UHGV virus genome: UHGV-0083157
Strand: one strand, 5' to 3'
Length of the DNA stretch: 10,230 bases
Source of the DNA: a virus
The position numbers and the translations under genes are program-made. The notes beneath the pieces are model-generated. The model searched no databases. It was not told where the DNA came from and saw nothing but the letters and a program-made list of their open reading frames with translations. Positions 759-8,406 of the stretch are shown here, piece by piece (position 1 is the stretch's first letter; each line of letters opens with the position of its first letter).

Positions 759-1316
759 ATGAGATATTTGAAGTATGCTTCATGGATTTTCCTAGCTTTG
801 CTAGAGCCATTTGCAGCAATCTTAGCAGTAATCTTAGCACCCTTTGTGGTTCCATTCTACAGTGAGAAGAAAGGTCACCTGCCTTTTGGATTCAGATGGA
901 TGGAAACTTATGACAACCAGATTGACGGTGACAAAGGTCACGTTGAACGATGGGCTAAGATTCGAAAGATTGGTAAGCTCGGTGTTTATATGCAGAGAGT
1001 TGGATGGCTCTGGAGAAACAAAGCTTATAACTTCTCTTACCATGTATTAGGAAGAGATGTAAAAGATGTTACTAAGTGGAAAGGTAATATCAACGTAAGT
1101 TCTAACCCTGAAGATAATCAGACAGGTTATCTACTGATGTGGAACAGTAATGCTTGGGGATTATTCGCTTTTATCCCATCAATTAAAGTCTTTGGTAAAC
1201 AGTTTTACTGGAGAATTTATGTTGGTTGGAAGCTTAAAAGTGTTGTCCCAGAAGAAAGAGCATTCTCAAGGGAAAGAATTATGTTGGCATTCTTTATTCA
1301 TCCACTAAGAAAGTAA
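759..1316 (+). CDS. Hypothetical membrane protein (185 aa; N-terminal hydrophobic segment, Trp/Tyr/Lys-rich remainder)
   Basis: ATG 759 preceded by AAGAGG (745-750, 8-nt spacer); uninterrupted frame to TAA 1314-1316; N-terminal stretch WIFLALLEPFAAILAVILAPFVVPF is a predicted TM helix. Embedded between tRNA-Arg and tRNA-Gln with 8 nt to the next tRNA. Confidence 0.6.
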   Translation: MRYLKYASWIFLALLEPFAAILAVILAPFVVPFYSEKKGHLPFGFRWMETYDNQIDGDKGHVERWAKIRKIGKLGVYMQRVGWLWRNKAYNFSYHVLGRDVKDVTKWKGNINVSSNPEDNQTGYLLMWNSNAWGLFAFIPSIKVFGKQFYWRIYVGWKLKSVVPEERAFSRERIMLAFFIHPLRK

Positions 1317-1324
1317 AGATTTAA

Positions 1325-1397
1325 AGGGGATTAGTTTACAAGGTTAAAACCTCGGTCTTTGAAATCGAAGAAGTTGGTTCAATTCCAACATCCCCCG
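1325..1397 (+). tRNA. tRNA-Gln (anticodon TTG)
   Basis: TA 1332-1333; D-stem GTTT/AAAC perfect; anticodon stem TCGGT/ATCGA (1352-1356/1364-1368), loop CTTTGAA (1357-1363); T-arm GTTGG-TTCAATT-CCAAC (1373-1389); 3' acceptor ATCCCCC (1390-1396); discriminator G1397 (Gln identity G73); CCA 1398-1400. The 1:72 pair is A/C, a weak first pair. Confidence 0.62.
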
Positions 1398-1402
1398 CCA
1401 AT

Positions 1403-1478
1403 GCTCCATTACTCCAATTGGCAGAGAGGCCAGACTTAAAATCTGTGTTATGTATCGGTTCGAATCCGATATGGAGTA
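1403..1478 (+). tRNA. tRNA-Leu-like (anticodon TAA), short variable region (type-I-like)
   Basis: Acceptor GCTCCAT (1403-1409) pairs with ATGGAGT (1471-1477); D-arm CTC-CAATTGGCAGA-GAG (same architecture as the 407-481 tRNA); anticodon loop CTTAAAA (1435-1441); T-arm ATCGG-TTCGAAT-CCGAT (1454-1470); discriminator A1478; CCA 1479-1481. Variable region about 7 nt. Confidence 0.58.
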
Positions 1479-1488
1479 CCAAATTAAT

Positions 1489-1561
1489 AGCAGTGTAGCA
1501 TAACTGGCAATGCTCCAGCCTCTGAAGCTGAAAGATTAAGGTTCAAATCCTTACGCTGCTG
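1489..1561 (+). tRNA. tRNA-Gln (anticodon CTG)
   Basis: Acceptor AGCAGTG (1489-1495) pairs with CGCTGCT (1554-1560); D-stem GCAT/ATGC perfect; anticodon loop CTCTGAA (1520-1526); T-arm TAAGG-TTCAAAT-CCTTA (1537-1553); discriminator G1561; CCA 1562-1564. Confidence 0.62.
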
Positions 1562-1595
1562 CCACTTCTAAGGGTTCTTACGAGAGTCCTTACAT

Positions 1596-1669
1596 GTGGC
1601 CTTATCATAAATGGATAATGACCCATGCTGTGAACATGGTCTATATGGGTTCGATTCCCGTAGGTCACC
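1596..1669 (+). tRNA. tRNA-His (anticodon GTG)
   Basis: Acceptor GTGGCCT (1596-1602) pairs with AGGTCAC (1662-1668); D-stem TCAT/ATGA perfect; anticodon stem CCATG/CATGG perfect (1623-1627/1635-1639), loop CTGTGAA (1628-1634); T-arm ATGGG-TTCGATT-CCCGT; discriminator C1669 (His identity C73); CCA 1670-1672. The -1 position is T, so no encoded G-1. Confidence 0.75.
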
Positions 1670-1680
1670 CCAAATTTAAT

Positions 1681-1753
1681 GGGTTAAGTAGCTTATATGG
1701 TTAAAGCGCGTGTCTGAAAAACATGAGAAGAGGGTTCAAATCCCACTAACCCG
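1681..1753 (+). tRNA. tRNA-Phe (anticodon GAA), irregular acceptor/T-arm geometry
   Basis: D-arm GCTT-ATATGGTTA-AAGC (1691-1707); anticodon stem CGTGT/ACATG (1709-1713/1721-1725), loop CTGAAAA (1714-1720); T-loop TTCAAAT (1735-1741); acceptor GGGTTA(A) pairs with (C)TAACCC; CCA 1754-1756. One extra nucleotide near positions 8-9 or a mismatched T-stem pair, so boundaries are +/-1 nt. Confidence 0.55.
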
Positions 1754-1773
1754 CCAATTTCAAAAGGTGCTTA

Positions 1774-2508
1774 ATGAAAGAGATGACAGAACAAGGTAAA
1801 GGGATTTTCAATCTCCTGAAATCCGGTAACGGGTTTTCTAACCCTCTTATTACCGGTGCAGCAATCCTTGGTGGCACAATTGCTGCTTCTACTTCATTAG
1901 TAAGCTCTCTTAGCTCGGTATCAGACCCTACTGTACAAGATAAGCTTATTGCGGCTGGTTTAACAGTAGCACTATTAAGTAGCTTTACAACAAGTCTGGG
2001 AAGCACAACCTCAACAACCAATACACTGACCAAATATGGACAGAAGTCTGTAGATGAGTTTTCACAGCGTATGCAAGTAGCTAAAGGTTACTCTAACGTT
2101 ATGGGAGCAGCAGGTGAACAGGTTGGTTGTACTCCATTTAGTGGAATCATGGGAGTTGCTACTGAGTACGGTAACAAAGCAATGGAACTGATTAACACCT
2201 CTTTAGATGCTGTGAATGACGTTCTAAGCGATTTACAAGATGCAATTGACCAAGGACTAGCAACCATCGAAGAACTCGCCTCACAAGCCGTTACAGCGAT
2301 TAATCAGGGCATTGCTAAGATTACTGCATATGCTAATGAGGTCACTCAGATGATTGCAGATGAAGCAGCGTTAATTGCTGATTACTTGAAAACGAATATT
2401 AATGGTTTCCTTGCAGGTGTCTTACCAGACTGGTTTGATGATGCTTGTAAAACTGGCGTGATTGATTCAATCGCAACTCCAGAAATGAAGGATGCCTTGA
2501 ACAAATAA
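1774..2508 (+). CDS. Hypothetical protein (244 aa; Ser/Thr/Ala/Gly-rich low-complexity N-terminal half with a hydrophobic segment, acidic helical C-terminal half)
   Basis: ATG 1774 with AAAGG/AAGGTG upstream (1763-1769); open frame to TAA 2506-2508; sits 17 nt after the CCA of tRNA-Phe and 2 nt before tRNA-Ser. No recognisable catalytic motif. Confidence 0.6.
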   Translation: MKEMTEQGKGIFNLLKSGNGFSNPLITGAAILGGTIAASTSLVSSLSSVSDPTVQDKLIAAGLTVALLSSFTTSLGSTTSTTNTLTKYGQKSVDEFSQRMQVAKGYSNVMGAAGEQVGCTPFSGIMGVATEYGNKAMELINTSLDAVNDVLSDLQDAIDQGLATIEELASQAVTAINQGIAKITAYANEVTQMIADEAALIADYLKTNINGFLAGVLPDWFDDACKTGVIDSIATPEMKDALNK

Positions 2509-2908: not shown

Positions 2909-3109
2909 ATGAACGAGACTAATGTTTACAAAGAACTTTATGATGCAAACAAAAGAGCCGAACTGTTACAGAACACTATTATTAGTGTTGCTCACCGTCT
3001 GGCTAATGCAACTGGTAAAGATATTAAAGAAACCAATATGGATGAACTGTTAGATGCAGTTGATGTAAAGTTTGGTGTTAAGTCTACCGAAGAAGTTGCT
3101 GCTGAATAA
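2909..3109 (+). CDS. Hypothetical small protein (66 aa) immediately upstream of the large terminase
   Basis: ATG 2909 with GGAG (2898-2901, 7-nt spacer); stop TAA 3107-3109; acidic, helical-looking. Too short for a confident small-terminase call. Confidence 0.5.
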   Translation: MNETNVYKELYDANKRAELLQNTIISVAHRLANATGKDIKETNMDELLDAVDVKFGVKSTEEVAAE

Positions 3110-4749: not shown

Positions 4750-6216
4750 ATGGCAGAAATTACAGAAACACAAGAAAACCTACCTCCATTCAGAATGGGT
4801 GAGGTTGGGAGCCTTGGTTTAAAGGTTCGTAATGGAAGAATCTACGAAGAACCTAGACAAGCTTTAAGATTCCCAGAAAGTATTAAAACTTTCCAACTAA
4901 TGATGCGTGACCCCGCTGTAGCGGCATCTGTAAACATTATTAAGATGTTTGTTAGAAAAGTCAACTGGAGATTTGTTCCTCCGAAGGGAAAAGAACAAGA
5001 CCCTAAGATGATTGAACGGGCAGACTTCTTTAACTCTCTGATGGATGACATGGAGCATGATTGGGCTGACTTTATTAACTCTGTAATGTCATTCTGTACT
5101 TACGGATTCTGCGTGAATGAGAAAGTTTACAAGAAGCGTCAGGGTAATAAAGGGAAATACCCTTCAAGATATAATGATGGTTTAATTGGTTGGGCTAAAC
5201 TCCCTATCAGAAACCAGTCAACTCTTGATAAATGGTATTTTGATTCAGACTATCGAAAAGTAACAGGTGTTAGACAGAATCTGAGAAACGTTTCACACAT
5301 TGCTGGAGCTATTAATCTGGCTGAACAGCCACTAACAAGAAAACTTCCAAGAAGTAAATTCTTGCTGTTCAAATATGATGATGAGTACGGTAACCCAGAA
5401 GGTCGTTCACCATTACTTAATGCTTATGTACCTTGGAAATATAAAGTCCAAATTGAAGAGTACGAAGCAGTTGGTGTTTCCAGAGACTTAGTAGGTATGC
5501 CAAAGATTGGTTTACCACCTGATTATCTGGATGAGAATGCTGAACCTGAAAAGAAAGCTTTCGTAGAATACTGCAAATCTGTAGTTAATGATATGATTGC
5601 AAATGACCGAGCAGGTTTAATCTGGCCTAGATTCATCGACCCAGAAACTAAAGAGGATATCTTTGAGTTCTCATTAGTATCTAGACAGGGTGCAAAGGCT
5701 TACGATACCGGAGCTATCATTGACCGTTATTCTAAGCAGATTATGATGGCGTTTATGTCAGACGTTCTTGCAATGGGTCAGTCAAAATATGGTTCATTCT
5801 CTTTAGCAGATTCTAAGACAAGTTTACTTGCAATGTCTGTAGATATTCTTCTGAAACAAATCAGAAACGTAATTAACCGTGACCTAGTAGCACAGACTTA
5901 CGCTCTGAATATGTGGGATGATGAAGAACACGTTCAAATCGTTTATGACGACATTGAAACTCCAGACCTTGAAGCTATTGGTGCTTACATTCAGAAGACC
6001 GTTGCAGTTGGTGCTATGGAAGTTGATAAGGAACTGTCTAACAAGCTTAGAGAACACATTGGATTACCACCTGCTGATGAGTCTCAACCTGTGTCTGAAG
6101 AATTATCTCCTAACACTCAAAGTCGTTCAGGTGATGGTTATAAGACTGCCGGAGAGGGAACTGCGAAGACCCCTTCAGCAAAAGACCCAAGTACAGCGAA
6201 TAAGGCAAATAAATAA
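4750..6216 (+). CDS. Portal protein (putative; 488 aa from ATG 4750; ORF track uses GTG 4741)
   Basis: Follows TerL directly; AGGTGA SD 5 nt upstream of ATG 4750; size about 490 aa with acidic/low-complexity C-terminal tail; position between terminase and prohead protease. No direct homology check was possible. Confidence 0.65.
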   Translation: MAEITETQENLPPFRMGEVGSLGLKVRNGRIYEEPRQALRFPESIKTFQLMMRDPAVAASVNIIKMFVRKVNWRFVPPKGKEQDPKMIERADFFNSLMDDMEHDWADFINSVMSFCTYGFCVNEKVYKKRQGNKGKYPSRYNDGLIGWAKLPIRNQSTLDKWYFDSDYRKVTGVRQNLRNVSHIAGAINLAEQPLTRKLPRSKFLLFKYDDEYGNPEGRSPLLNAYVPWKYKVQIEEYEAVGVSRDLVGMPKIGLPPDYLDENAEPEKKAFVEYCKSVVNDMIANDRAGLIWPRFIDPETKEDIFEFSLVSRQGAKAYDTGAIIDRYSKQIMMAFMSDVLAMGQSKYGSFSLADSKTSLLAMSVDILLKQIRNVINRDLVAQTYALNMWDDEEHVQIVYDDIETPDLEAIGAYIQKTVAVGAMEVDKELSNKLREHIGLPPADESQPVSEELSPNTQSRSGDGYKTAGEGTAKTPSAKDPSTANKANK

Positions 6217-6584
6217 TGGCTGAAGTTATCTCTATTTCAAATGCTACACGAGTGCATTCGTATAGAGGTGTTCTGGTTATTACTGATACGTTATCTGTAG
6301 AGGCTGGCTCAAGGGTCAGCCTTTCAGGTTATGTAAGTGATGGTGGAACCTCTAACGTTTTCACTATTTGCAGGTTACTTGATGCTCCAATGAACGGAAA
6401 TTCGTTTATTTCAAACAATTGTAGCGAAATTGTTAAAATTCTATTTGACAGTTCATGCCTTTTGGGTGTAAAGTTATATAACTGTGAGAATAAACGTATA
6501 AACGTTAATAGCGTTGAAGCTGCGTTCATTACCATTGACACAGCATTTCAATCCCCAATGACAGTAAACAAGATCGGAGTCTAA
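6216..6584 (+). CDS. Hypothetical protein (122 aa, beta-rich, 4 Cys), start overlaps the portal stop (TAATG)
   Basis: ATG 6216-6218 overlaps portal TAA 6214-6216 (translational coupling); open to TAA 6582-6584; no recognisable motif. Confidence 0.5.
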   Translation: MAEVISISNATRVHSYRGVLVITDTLSVEAGSRVSLSGYVSDGGTSNVFTICRLLDAPMNGNSFISNNCSEIVKILFDSSCLLGVKLYNCENKRINVNSVEAAFITIDTAFQSPMTVNKIGV

Positions 6585-6624
6585 CAGACTTGAGTACATT
6601 TTTTCACAAAATGATTACAAAGTA

Positions 6625-6652
6625 CTTGTCAAAGGTAAAGTGTATGATATGA
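6625..6652 (+). promoter_or_regulatory. Candidate sigma70-like promoter (TTGTCA - 16 nt - TATGAT) in the 135-nt gap before ORF 6720
   Basis: -35-like TTGTCA 6625-6630 and -10-like TATGAT 6647-6652 in an AT-rich non-coding gap. Sequence-only call. Confidence 0.25.
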
Positions 6653-6719
6653 TTGTAAATGTGGTGGATGAATCTGGTAACCATTCAACAGTCCTTAAAC
6701 AGAAAGTAAGGTTCAATTA

Positions 6720-7052
6720 ATGGGAACATTAACTATTGATGGTAAGAATAAAATCCTCGCCACGCTAACCCCAACGACTATTGTTTTACACAATGTAGAC
6801 CCAACGGCAGACCCTACAGCAAATAAGGTTACTCAGCCAGTGGCTATTTATTTCTCTGAACCGAACAACGGCTTAATCGCCTCAGAAGATACAGTCAAGA
6901 TTACTGTACCAGCTTCTGCAACGGTCTCACACTATAGCCTATGGGATGCCAACGATAAATGCGTGGCAACAGGTGCTCTTAGCAGCCCTCAATTCTTTGC
7001 TGAAGAAGGTATCTATGTTATCGCTTCAGTATCGGTGGATTTAAACAAATAG
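6720..7052 (+). CDS. Hypothetical protein (110 aa, Thr/Val/Ala-rich, likely beta-rich)
   Basis: ATG 6720 with AAGG (6707-6710) upstream; stop TAG 7050-7052, 10 nt before the protease ATG; no recognisable motif. Confidence 0.5.
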   Translation: MGTLTIDGKNKILATLTPTTIVLHNVDPTADPTANKVTQPVAIYFSEPNNGLIASEDTVKITVPASATVSHYSLWDANDKCVATGALSSPQFFAEEGIYVIASVSVDLNK

Positions 7053-7062
7053 GGTGAGTAAA

Positions 7063-8406
7063 ATGAGTTCGAATATCTTCAGACTTGCTGATAGATTATT
7101 CAACCAACCTTTACTAGCCACTGAATCTCTAGCTCACTCAGCAGCGACTTATGTAAATAACCGCTTGTTAGGTGAAGTTCAAGCAGCAGTCAATTTCGAC
7201 AAACCTAAAGGTGAGGCAAGAAGTCTTTTAAAAGTTAAAGACGACATTGCTATTATCCCTATTATGGGTGGCCTAACACATCGTATGACATTTATGGATG
7301 CAATGTGTACTGGTGGTCTAAGTTCTTATGAAGGTTTACGCAGAGGCTTCGACGAAGCTTTAGCAGATGAATCTATTAAGACGATTGTACTGCACGTTGA
7401 TTCTGGTGGTGGTGAAGCTTCAGGTTGTTTTGAATTAGCACGTCACATCGTAGCCTCCAGAGGCAAAAAGAAAATTGTAGCATATGTTGATGAGTTCGCA
7501 TGTTCCGCTGCGTATGCACTTGCATGTTCTGCTGATGAAGTAATTGCATCACCAGATGCAGATGTTGGTTCAATCGGTGTAATTATGGTTCACCAAGAAT
7601 TAACTAAAGCGTTTGAAAAGAATGGCGTTACAATTAACGTTATTAAAGCTGGTGAATTTAAAGGTTTGGGTTCCCCATTCCAAGCACTCTCAGAAGAAAG
7701 CAAAACAAGACTTCAACAGAGAATTAATGACACCTATAACACCTTCACAGGTTTTGTAGCTGATTCACGTAATATCTCCGAAGAAGCTGTAAAGAATACT
7801 GAGGCGAATGTTTATTCTGCTCAGGAAGCTCTTGAACTTGGTTTAATTAATTCAATCATGTCTCAAGATGATTTCTTAAATTACTTACAAGGTTCTGATG
7901 AAGCTCCTGTAAGTTTAAACGTTAACAATTCAGGTGAAGAAATGACTGAACAAGAAAAGCAAGAACTAGAGGCTCTACGCGCTCAGGTTGCTCAGATGAA
8001 AGCAAAAGAACAGGAAAAAACTATGTCTGAACTGACTGGTAAGATTTCTGCTTCTGCTGAAGCTTTCGGGTTTGACGCAACAGAAGCTGCTCAGGCTATC
8101 TTAGGCGCTGGTCTTGACAACCCTCTGAGTGTTCTCTTTATGAATGCTATGGAAGGTGCTAACCAGAAACTAAATGAAACTATCGCGGCTCATGCTTCTG
8201 CACTGTCAGAGAAAGATTCCGAAATCACTAAGCTGAAAGAAACTGCTGGTGCTGTTCTGGAACACTCTAACGCAATGGAAGAAATGGGTAATGACGGTGA
8301 AGCAGAACTGGTTGACGAAGAAAAACCTTCTGAAAACGCATCTGATGACACCGCAGAACAACGCAAACTGGCTCTCCAGAATGCTTTGAAATCTCTTATC
8401 AAATAA
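7063..8406 (+). CDS. Prohead (head maturation) protease, S49/SppA-like, fused to a C-terminal coiled-coil scaffold-like domain (447 aa from ATG 7063; ORF track uses GTG 7054)
   Basis: GGTGA (7053-7057) 5 nt before ATG 7063; motifs IPIMGGLTH, HVDSGGGEASG and EFACSAAYALACSAD resemble the S49 (lambda gpC / SppA) Ser-Lys peptidase fold; residues from about 295 onward are acidic, Ala/Glu/Lys/Gln-rich and heptad-like, as in scaffolding proteins. Confidence 0.8.
   Translation: MSSNIFRLADRLFNQPLLATESLAHSAATYVNNRLLGEVQAAVNFDKPKGEARSLLKVKDDIAIIPIMGGLTHRMTFMDAMCTGGLSSYEGLRRGFDEALADESIKTIVLHVDSGGGEASGCFELARHIVASRGKKKIVAYVDEFACSAAYALACSADEVIASPDADVGSIGVIMVHQELTKAFEKNGVTINVIKAGEFKGLGSPFQALSEESKTRLQQRINDTYNTFTGFVADSRNISEEAVKNTEANVYSAQEALELGLINSIMSQDDFLNYLQGSDEAPVSLNVNNSGEEMTEQEKQELEALRAQVAQMKAKEQEKTMSELTGKISASAEAFGFDATEAAQAILGAGLDNPLSVLFMNAMEGANQKLNETIAAHASALSEKDSEITKLKETAGAVLEHSNAMEEMGNDGEAELVDEEKPSENASDDTAEQRKLALQNALKSLIK
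7919..7941 (+). repeat. Translation-initiation-region repeat copy 2 (ACGTTAACAATTCAGGTGA + AGAA) abutting an internal in-frame ATG of the protease gene
   Basis: 19-nt core 7919-7937 is identical to 4726-4744; SD-like AGGTGA (7932-7937) 4 nt before ATG 7942. Confidence 0.7.
7942..8406 (+). CDS. Putative nested scaffolding protein (154 aa) translated from an in-frame internal start within the protease gene (lambda C/Nu3-like arrangement)
   Basis: In-frame ATG 7942 preceded by a strong SD and the exact portal TIR repeat; it lies at the boundary between the protease domain and the coiled-coil domain; product MTEQEKQELEALRAQVAQMKAKEQEK... is helical and acidic. Confidence 0.4.
   Translation: MTEQEKQELEALRAQVAQMKAKEQEKTMSELTGKISASAEAFGFDATEAAQAILGAGLDNPLSVLFMNAMEGANQKLNETIAAHASALSEKDSEITKLKETAGAVLEHSNAMEEMGNDGEAELVDEEKPSENASDDTAEQRKLALQNALKSLIK

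Follow-up and report, generated by a model that had tools for sequence, protein, structure and literature searches.

Two conserved accessory genes in the tRNA array of a Felix O1-like phage: a DUF7338 membrane protein with homologues in lysis cassettes and a DUF7217 protein with homologues in virions

The viral genome UHGV-0083157 was analyzed over a window of 10,230 nucleotides (i.e., the whole stretch of DNA considered here), in which two open reading frames (ORFs), hereafter ORF1 and ORF2, are embedded in an array of tRNA genes. The window aligns over its full length with Enterobacteria phage CHB7 at 97.7% identity, with other Suspvirus genomes such as mistaenkt at ~97.5%, and with Felixounavirus genomes at ~88%. 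Judged by nucleotide identity, the source phage is a Felix O1-like myovirus (Ounavirinae, Suspvirus). Although Felix O1-like phages are put to use in Salmonella typing, in biocontrol, and in therapy, ~70% of their genes lack an assigned function. ARAGORN finds 12 tRNA genes in the window, all on the + strand, and both ORFs lie among them on the same strand, with tRNA genes on either side, as the original prediction had placed them. The array is co-oriented with a packaging and head module that begins ~400 bp past its end and comprises, in order, a 66-amino acid (aa) ORF and the genes for the large terminase (TerL), portal, prohead protease, a decoration-like protein, and the major capsid protein (MCP). 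The two genes, their parts, and the tRNA genes that flank them are:

663–739, + strand: tRNA-Arg(ACG), 3′ end 19 nt before the ORF1 start codon (ARAGORN and sequence)
744–750, + strand: Shine–Dalgarno AAAGAGG of ORF1, 8 nt before the ATG (direct sequence reading)
759–1316, + strand: ORF1, 185 aa, ATG start, DUF7338; single-pass inner-membrane protein with a ~150-aa domain predicted to be periplasmic
780–857, + strand: ORF1 codons 8–33, conserved transmembrane (TM) helix with the family-wide LAPFVVPF motif (hydropathy, alignment, AlphaFold helix 2–33, flank charges)
1325–1400, + strand: tRNA-Gln(TTG), beginning 8 nt past the ORF1 stop codon (ARAGORN)
1681–1756, + strand: tRNA-Phe(GAA), ending 17 nt before the ORF2 start codon (ARAGORN)
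1764–1769, + strand: Shine–Dalgarno-like AAGGTG of ORF2 (direct sequence reading)
1774–2508, + strand: ORF2, 244 aa, ATG start, DUF7217; acidic helical bundle, probable minor virion protein
1843–2007, + strand: ORF2 codons 24–78, Gly/Ala/Ser/Thr-rich, weakly hydrophobic helical hairpin (hydropathy; AlphaFold helices 25–47 and 52–94)
2110–2505, + strand: ORF2 codons 113–244, long acidic amphipathic helices (ApoLp-III- and tape-measure-repeat-like) ending in LPDWF-x-D-x-CK (alignment, AlphaFold, hydropathy)
2511–2603, + strand: tRNA-Ser(GCT), beginning 2 nt past the ORF2 stop codon (ARAGORN)

ORF1 and ORF2 are genuine genes and not chance ORFs. Neither protein had been credited with a recognizable motif in the original prediction, a view superseded by profile searches. 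ORF1 matches Pfam DUF7338 (PF24027) with 206.3 bits (E = 3.8e-61), its residues 1–184 aligning to positions 1–176 of the 180 in the model, and ORF2 matches DUF7217 (PF23854) with 283.8 bits (E = 1.6e-84), residues 8–242 aligning to positions 2–237 of 238. Both matches cover the full models and pass the Pfam gathering cut-offs of 27 bits (DUF7338) and 29 bits (DUF7217). The corresponding PHROGs are 2143 for ORF1 (E = 8.8e-80) and 2114 for ORF2 (E = 3.5e-107). ORF1 is the counterpart of Felix O1 ORF48 and Bas63 gene 153, ORF2 that of Felix O1 ORF49 and Bas63 gene 159, and homologues are found in more than 580 phage records for ORF1 and, likewise, more than 580 for ORF2. ORF1 is 96–99% identical to deposited Ounavirinae proteins, whose genes equally lie between tRNA-Arg and tRNA-Gln. 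DUF7338 is a family with no characterized function, and no papers were found under the names DUF7338 or DUF7217. Both genes are already known from near-identical deposited sequences, curated DUF families, and knockout data in a sister phage, and are in that sense fairly ordinary.

The ratio of nonsynonymous to synonymous divergence (dN/dS) against four or five relatives is 0.03–0.10 for ORF1 and 0.10–0.17 for ORF2, comparable to TerL and MCP; because these values are low, both ORFs encode proteins under purifying selection. Synonymous divergence (dS) is uneven within genome pairs. Against an AYO145A-like phage (Felixounavirus), it is 0.31 for ORF1, 0.55 for TerL, 0.50 for MCP, and 1.29 for ORF2; against mistaenkt, the respective values are 0.095, 0.077, 0.050, and 0.354. 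Such unevenness indicates mosaic exchange inside the tRNA array. The synonymous divergence of ORF2 is 2–7 times that of flanking core genes, and in the divergent Ounavirinae phage LPML1 the ORF2 gene is in place with an identity of only ~27%, from which it follows that ORF2 evolves and exchanges quickly.

ORF1 encodes a protein of 22.0 kDa (pI 10.0, net charge +13) in which a hydrophobic helix at about residues 8–33 (19-residue Kyte–Doolittle (KD) mean of 2.38) precedes a basic domain rich in Lys, Trp, and Tyr, just as the original prediction had described its composition. Across the 48 family members compared, the domain does not keep the strong basic charge that it has here. Three motifs of the domain are conserved in an alignment of 30 homologues: W-x-ET-x-DN-x-x-DGD-x-GH-x-x-RW, WLWRN-x-x-Y, and GWKLK. 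The AlphaFold model, with a predicted local distance difference test (pLDDT) score of 91.9, consists of a helix at residues 2–33, a small helical region, and an antiparallel sheet, i.e., an α/β domain for which neither fold nor sequence searches of the PDB gave a match. In 40 of the 48 family members, the TM helix carries more positive charge on its N-terminal than on its C-terminal flank, which, by the positive-inside rule, argues for an N-in/C-out topology with the ~150-aa domain in the periplasm. ORF1 would then be a type II inner-membrane protein, with ~7 cytoplasmic residues, one TM helix, and a periplasmic α/β domain of ~150 aa.

Homologues of DUF7338 are present in Ounavirinae and in many T4-like Straboviridae at ~55–61% identity (RB43, Lw1, Melville, PG7, and phages of Klebsiella, Enterobacter, and Cronobacter), and more distant ones in Aeromonas phages and jumbo Serratia phages. 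In every lineage at least 55% identical, a same-strand tRNA gene lies 20–1200 nt upstream of DUF7338, even where the phage has only one or two tRNAs, and in a 192-kb phage with 29% identity the gene is placed between two tRNAs. A same-strand tRNA no more than 1.2 kb upstream thus recurs in Ounavirinae, in a 120-kb phage (L031), in RB43-, Karam-, Gelderland-, and S13-like T4 relatives, and in the 192-kb phage, as expected if ORF1 worked with the tRNAs themselves, in their processing, their shielding from host anticodon nucleases, or their regulation. Such a function is nevertheless very improbable. In ~20 more divergent DUF7338 loci, many of them lysis cassettes, there is no tRNA within 10 kb; a periplasmic domain, as predicted, could not contact tRNA; and the tRNA region of T4-like phages itself sits 1.4–9.5 kb upstream of the endolysin gene e. 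A linkage to tRNA genes that involves no shared function is plausible because tRNA arrays are rich in homing endonucleases and offer conserved sequence for recombination. Moreover, the dS of ORF1 against Felixounavirus, lower than those of TerL and MCP in the same genome pair, together with the high identity across phage families, suggests horizontal exchange. The location of ORF1 in tRNA arrays is thus probably the outcome of horizontal transfer into a recombination-prone region and not of a tRNA-related function. Two loci met in this survey are of separate interest. A 192-kb uncultivated phage contig (L074) with a distant DUF7338 homologue at 5750–6108 also encodes 19 tRNAs and a tmRNA with the tag peptide ANDEVYALAA, and a 178-kb contig (L109) in the assembly of Flagellimonas marina, one of the marine Flavobacteriia, carries a homologue of 58% identity and has the look of contamination by a T4-like enterobacterial phage, not of a prophage.

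A second recurrent context of DUF7338 is the lysis cassette. Clustering of the neighbors of 30 DUF7338 loci yielded no partner gene common to all of them and two groups with conserved neighborhoods, of six loci each. In Group A, a tail protein gene is followed by DUF7338 with a 4-nt overlap, an ORF of ~90 aa whose product has a single TM helix and a strongly charged tail, a GH24 endolysin with an N-terminus like that of signal-arrest-release (SAR) proteins, and, further on, an Rz-like spanin. In Group B, the order is tail fiber, DUF7338, and GH108 endolysin, with an intervening holin (PHROG 3427) in four of the six loci. Similarly, an Amantichitinum prophage (L111) has a tail fiber gene, DUF7338, an endolysin-like ORF, and an Rz-like spanin (E = 2e-27), and at another locus (L057) an Rz-like spanin stands directly upstream of DUF7338. 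Weak matches point to a spanin in a Selenomonadaceae prophage (L114) and to an endolysin at locus L075. Among T4-like phages, the endolysin gene e is 0.9 kb downstream of DUF7338 in Melville and 7–9.5 kb downstream in others. In total, lysis genes are near DUF7338 in at least three clear cases and two weak ones among ~8 independent lineages. A random gene would lie within two genes of a lysis gene in ~10–15% of cases, a rough estimate that was inferred and not computed; chance proximity is accordingly unlikely, but the case is not overwhelming. The notion that DUF7338 is tied to one endolysin class was ruled out, as SAR GH24, GH108, transglycosylase-like, and soluble GH24 enzymes all adjoin it. 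With three different endolysin classes involved, DUF7338 is linked to the lysis locus or a membrane step rather than to one enzyme.

Knockout data are available from the PhageMaP library of phage Bas63, a Felixounavirus. Disruption of gene 153, the counterpart of ORF1, labeled ‘holin*’ from BLASTp only, gives fitness values of +0.75 to +1.85 in four E. coli hosts (S17, MG1655, DH10B, and a third host in the dataset that is BW25113 by elimination). Gene 29, another putative holin gene located after the tail fibers, scores −1.4 to −1.9 in MG1655 and DH10B and −0.18 to −0.48 in S17, and the endolysin knockout −0.5 to −2.2. Since the gene 153 knockout is fit and gene 29 is needed, the essential holin of this phage group is a protein other than ORF1. 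That ORF1 is itself a holin, in a class that, like T4 T, has a single TM helix and a large periplasmic domain, is a natural thought given its T-like architecture (an N-terminal TM helix plus a ~150-aa periplasmic domain), the first place that DUF7338 takes in the lysis cassettes of several lineages, the ‘holin’ label in Citrobacter phage HP1 as well as in the Bas63 data, and the fact that the Felix O1 paper was unable to identify a holin beside the lysin. We consider it quite improbable, as the gene 153 knockout is among the fittest in Bas63 while gene 29 is clearly needed. In addition, a recognized holin sits next door to DUF7338 in four of six Group B loci and a holin-like one-TM ORF in Group A, neither Pfam nor fold comparison relates ORF1 to T or to another holin family, and the ‘holin’ labels were given by similarity alone, with no experiment behind them.

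ORF1 is most likely an accessory factor of the lysis apparatus that would tune holin triggering or the timing of lysis, either antiholin-like or as a redundant second holin. Among the closest parallels are the T4 holin T (class III) and the antiholin RI, which share with ORF1 a bitopic N-in/C-out arrangement, predicted in the case of ORF1, and a sizeable periplasmic domain. Furthermore, DUF7338 occurs in T4-like phages, is associated with lysis cassettes in other lineages, and is non-essential, as is RI. Several observations tell against a lysis role. The lineage of ORF1 itself has no adjoining lysis genes, and in relatives the endolysin is ~8 kb away on the opposite strand; three loci (L052–54) and the jumbo phages L061/63/64 have neither tRNA nor lysis neighbors; and the neutral knockout of gene 153 suits an exclusion or defense-related gene as well as it does a lysis regulator.

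The original prediction had offered, as speculation, superinfection exclusion, host takeover, or anti-defense for these proteins. In such a view of one or both of them, ORF1, for instance, could be a membrane-anchored periplasmic blocker of incoming phage, like T4 Spackle or Imm. The likeness is real in that ORF1 resembles these proteins in topology and is also small, dispensable, and envelope-located, with Spackle facing the periplasm as well. Loss of either gene is neutral or almost neutral in laboratory hosts, as is usual for conditionally useful genes, the interval between tail fiber and lysis genes in other phages is a classic site of exclusion morons, and the ~60% identity between Ounavirinae and T4-like phages suggests the horizontal spread of a self-contained accessory function. 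Against this, scans of PADLOC and NCBIfam gave no match for ORF1 and, for ORF2, only a weak one to a ZorA coiled coil (E = 6e-4), and neither gene is highlighted among the defense counters or triggers in the PhageMaP screens. Unlike Spackle and Imm, to which no homology was detected, DUF7338 is packed into late lysis operons in several lineages, not into early regions, and it overlaps or directly adjoins late genes in Groups A and B, which leaves no space for a promoter of its own, unlike in typical morons. ORF2, in turn, has homologues that were detected in virions. A role of either protein in exclusion, takeover, or anti-defense is therefore unlikely overall, and superinfection exclusion by ORF1 is conceivable. 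The argument that the genes stand in an early region is weak in view of the co-oriented packaging and head module ~400 bp away, and early host takeover by ORF1 fits poorly with divergent homologues in late lysis cassettes, between tail-fiber and holin or endolysin genes. The accessory status that the original prediction gave to both genes holds well, as the knockouts of Bas63 genes 153 and 159 are viable in all host data examined (four and three hosts, respectively). This Felix O1-like myovirus thus has in ORF1 and ORF2 two conserved accessory genes that are not essential.

ORF2 is an acidic protein of 25.3 kDa (pI 4.3, net charge −14) with a Gly/Ala/Ser/Thr-rich N-terminal half and an acidic helical C-terminal half. 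This is the composition set out in the original prediction, whose hydrophobic segment corresponds to two marginally hydrophobic helices at residues 24–50 and 56–78 (KD ~1.6). The family alignment shows Cys119 and Cys225 to be invariant, as is LPDWF-x-D-x-CK at the C-terminus, and AlphaFold gives a bundle of long helices (pLDDT 85.4). Among 1.8 billion representatives, a profile search picked out 99 relatives of ORF2, mostly standalone proteins of ~240 aa, and a few long proteins that match the C-terminal half only. Eight of these long proteins were scanned: two are tape measure proteins (TMPs), and the rest carry ApoLp-III or Baculo_PEP_C-type repeats. PDB sequence searches returned only coiled-coil noise. 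ORF2 has features in common with ejection (pilot) proteins and with hydrophobic stretches of TMPs (T5 Pb2, T7 gp14–16, P22 gp7/16/20): its homologues were detected in virions, and it is helical, with weakly hydrophobic helices rich in Gly, Ala, Ser, and Thr. It also has a weak profile similarity to tape measures (PHROG 305, E = 0.002), in line with the TMP-containing proteins among its distant matches. However, with only 244 aa, ORF2 is far shorter than a tape measure, has no PhageMin_Tail or other Pfam TMP domain, is dispensable in Bas63, and is encoded upstream of TerL and not between the tail chaperones and baseplate genes. Matches to apolipophorin-III- and HeLo/MLKL-type bundles, which open onto membranes, are generic for helical bundles, with an identity of 5–11%.

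Beyond Ounavirinae, ORF2 homologues are found throughout Ackermannviridae at ~30% identity, where the gene adjoins a DUF7424 lipoprotein gene and the tail-completion gene gp3. The label ‘GTP-binding domain’ (PHROG 289, kage_34) of a neighbor of the ORF2 homologue was dropped, as the neighbor is a SLOG-family protein with no link to GTPases. A scan of viral contigs for distant DUF7217 loci found close relatives only, and the context in an Acinetobacter phage was uninformative. Within DUF7217 and PHROG 2114, ORF2 shares its length, the LPDWF-x-D-x-CK motif, and the two invariant cysteines with Felix O1 ORF49, LIMEstone1 ORF129, and Sajous1 gp166. It differs from the Ackermannviridae members detected in virions by mass spectrometry (MS) in its identity of only ~30% and in its location, a tRNA array beside TerL as opposed to the neighborhood of gp3.

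Two virion proteomes contain homologues of ORF2. LIMEstone1 ORF129 is annotated as a ‘confirmed structural protein’, of 25.03 kDa, identified by 2 unique peptides with 18.18% coverage (PMC3296691); its record shows a predicted late promoter before ORF129, and a tail-completion gene adjoins. In Sajous1, the syntenic gp166 (242 aa) has 8 spectra in CsCl-purified virions, as many as the tail completion protein gp168 and more than several accepted structural proteins (PMC10892097). The ‘ferritin-like operon’ of Sajous1, gp214–217, was also considered as the homologue of ORF2 and set aside as a different locus, the true homologue being gp166. These findings relate ORF2 to probable structural proteins, counter to the non-structural roles first proposed for it. 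In Bas63, the knockout of gene 159 has a fitness of −0.09 to +0.88 in three E. coli hosts, somewhat below typical neutral genes in two of them, as against −2 to −4 for core structural genes. Dispensability is not peculiar to it, since Bas63 genes 4 and 5, which also encode virion proteins confirmed by MS, can be lost as well.

Taken together, our analysis suggests that ORF2 is most likely a low-copy, dispensable, virion-associated helical-bundle protein. A number of points argue the other way. Spectral counts are low, and the Sajous1 preparation also contained the non-structural proteins RegB (31 spectra) and ParB (11) (PMC10892097). Evidence from Ounavirinae virions is ambiguous: the whole-particle shotgun list of Felix O1 does not include gp49, and the homologue in VpaE1 is labeled only ‘hypothetical’. 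The viability of the gene 159 knockout shows that ORF2 is no core structural component. Of the five AlphaFold models of ORF2, two are poor (pLDDT 51 and 47), and fold matches to helical bundles are promiscuous. A 51-kDa band of Felix O1 assigned to ‘gp49’, which its authors took for the sheath ‘by synteny and mass’, was not relied on as evidence for ORF49, because neither argument suits a 25-kDa protein encoded in the tRNA array; the band may be either a dimer or a slip in numbering.

It is also conceivable that ORF2 resides in the inner membrane of the infected cell, is active in lysis, lysis inhibition, or another process, and reaches virion preparations as a mere contaminant. The low MS counts, the known non-structural proteins in the same datasets, and the viable gene 159 knockout would all agree with this, as would the two marginally hydrophobic helices, the label ‘putative membrane protein’ in several records, and the weak resemblance to the ZorA/MotA tail region (E = 6e-4). 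Still, we regard it as improbable. Virion proteomes from two different genera, obtained independently, both contain the protein, at levels that equal or exceed those of accepted low-copy tail proteins; in LIMEstone1 it has a predicted late promoter in front and an adjoining tail-completion gene; and a hydrophobicity of ~1.6 is borderline for a TM helix, with confident models burying these helices in a soluble bundle. If ORF2 is indeed carried by the virion, the hairpin, which the model shows packed on the acidic amphipathic helices, may open up during infection and enter the host membrane. ORF2 may act in this way as an ejection or tape-measure-like helper, membrane insertion being suggested by composition and fold only.

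The spacing between the genes bears on their expression. ORF1 is separated from its flanking tRNAs by 19 and 8 nt and ORF2 by 17 and 2 nt, and a consensus scan found no promoter or terminator within the tRNA array. The first terminator-like hairpins in the sequence come after tRNA-Cys, at ~2726–2780 and 2847–2874. The scan yielded two features at this end of the array:

2766–2794: promoter-like site TAGACA-17-TATACT, upstream of the 66-aa ORF and TerL and overlapping the terminator-like hairpins (2726–2874) (consensus scan)
2847–2874, + strand: first clear terminator-like hairpin with a T-run after the array (consensus scan of the sequence only)

The hairpins and the promoter-like site suggest that one transcription unit ends and another begins between the tRNA array and the packaging module, and the hairpin at 2847–2874 probably ends the tRNA/ORF1/ORF2 unit. 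ORF1 and ORF2 would probably be co-transcribed with the tRNAs, the 5′ and 3′ processing of which would free short mRNAs; on the other side of the balance, no direct evidence was found for the expression of either ORF in this phage. The tight tRNA–ORF–tRNA packing makes the locus a candidate for tRNA-punctuated mRNA processing in a phage.

The account as a whole, in which an accessory lysis factor and a dispensable virion protein are encoded in the same tRNA array, is the one we favor, but tentatively and with less than even confidence. A broader proposal, more doubtful still, is that DUF7338 represents an unrecognized, widespread class of periplasm-facing lysis regulators (or a new class of single-TM holins) that would serve several unrelated endolysin types (SAR GH24, GH108, transglycosylase-like), would have moved horizontally between Felix O1-like and T4-like phages via tRNA arrays, and would be expressed as tRNA-punctuated mRNA. 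DUF7338 is present in hundreds of Ounavirinae and T4-like genomes, and its link with lysis cassettes makes a role in lysis testable. DUF7217, as a probable minor virion protein, would be a common dispensable component of the particles of Ounavirinae and Ackermannviridae. What is new here lies at the level of annotation: the recurrent lysis-cassette context and periplasmic topology of DUF7338, its linkage to tRNA arrays in two phage families, and the convergence of two virion proteomes on DUF7217. The gain is better annotation and testable hypotheses, and the current understanding of these phages is not overturned.

Other features of the window and its surroundings deserve mention. A 70-aa ORF at 501–713 (PHROG 10765; hypothetical in mistaenkt) overlaps tRNA-Arg (663–739) by 51 nt; its status as a gene is doubtful, and its conservation may merely mirror that of the DNA. 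The 66-aa ORF at 2909–3109 (PHROG 4397) is conserved and lies directly upstream of TerL. This phage group is said to have no recognizable small terminase, and the ORF could be a candidate for a small terminase-like or packaging accessory protein. Downstream, the gene at 6216–6584 (up to ~6719), homologous to Felix O1 gp54 (mistaenkt_106, 166 aa), carries a frameshift: compared with mistaenkt, a 4-bp insertion, GATC (~6572–6575), brings in a stop codon at 6582–6584 and leaves 122 aa. The gene may be a true pseudogene, or the insertion a sequencing error. In Felix O1, gp54 is a virion protein confirmed by MS, and its homologue in Bas63, gene 4, is non-essential (+0.9 to +1.2). Finally, just upstream of the tRNA array in relatives lies a gene for a 471-aa Ro60-like protein (DUF2828), at 6320–7735 in Bas63 (L079) and as ORF42 in Felix O1 (L003). 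The PhageMaP authors report that this Ro60-like DUF2828 protein counters the Ppl defense system, and they speculate about its binding of tRNA-like RNAs from the array.

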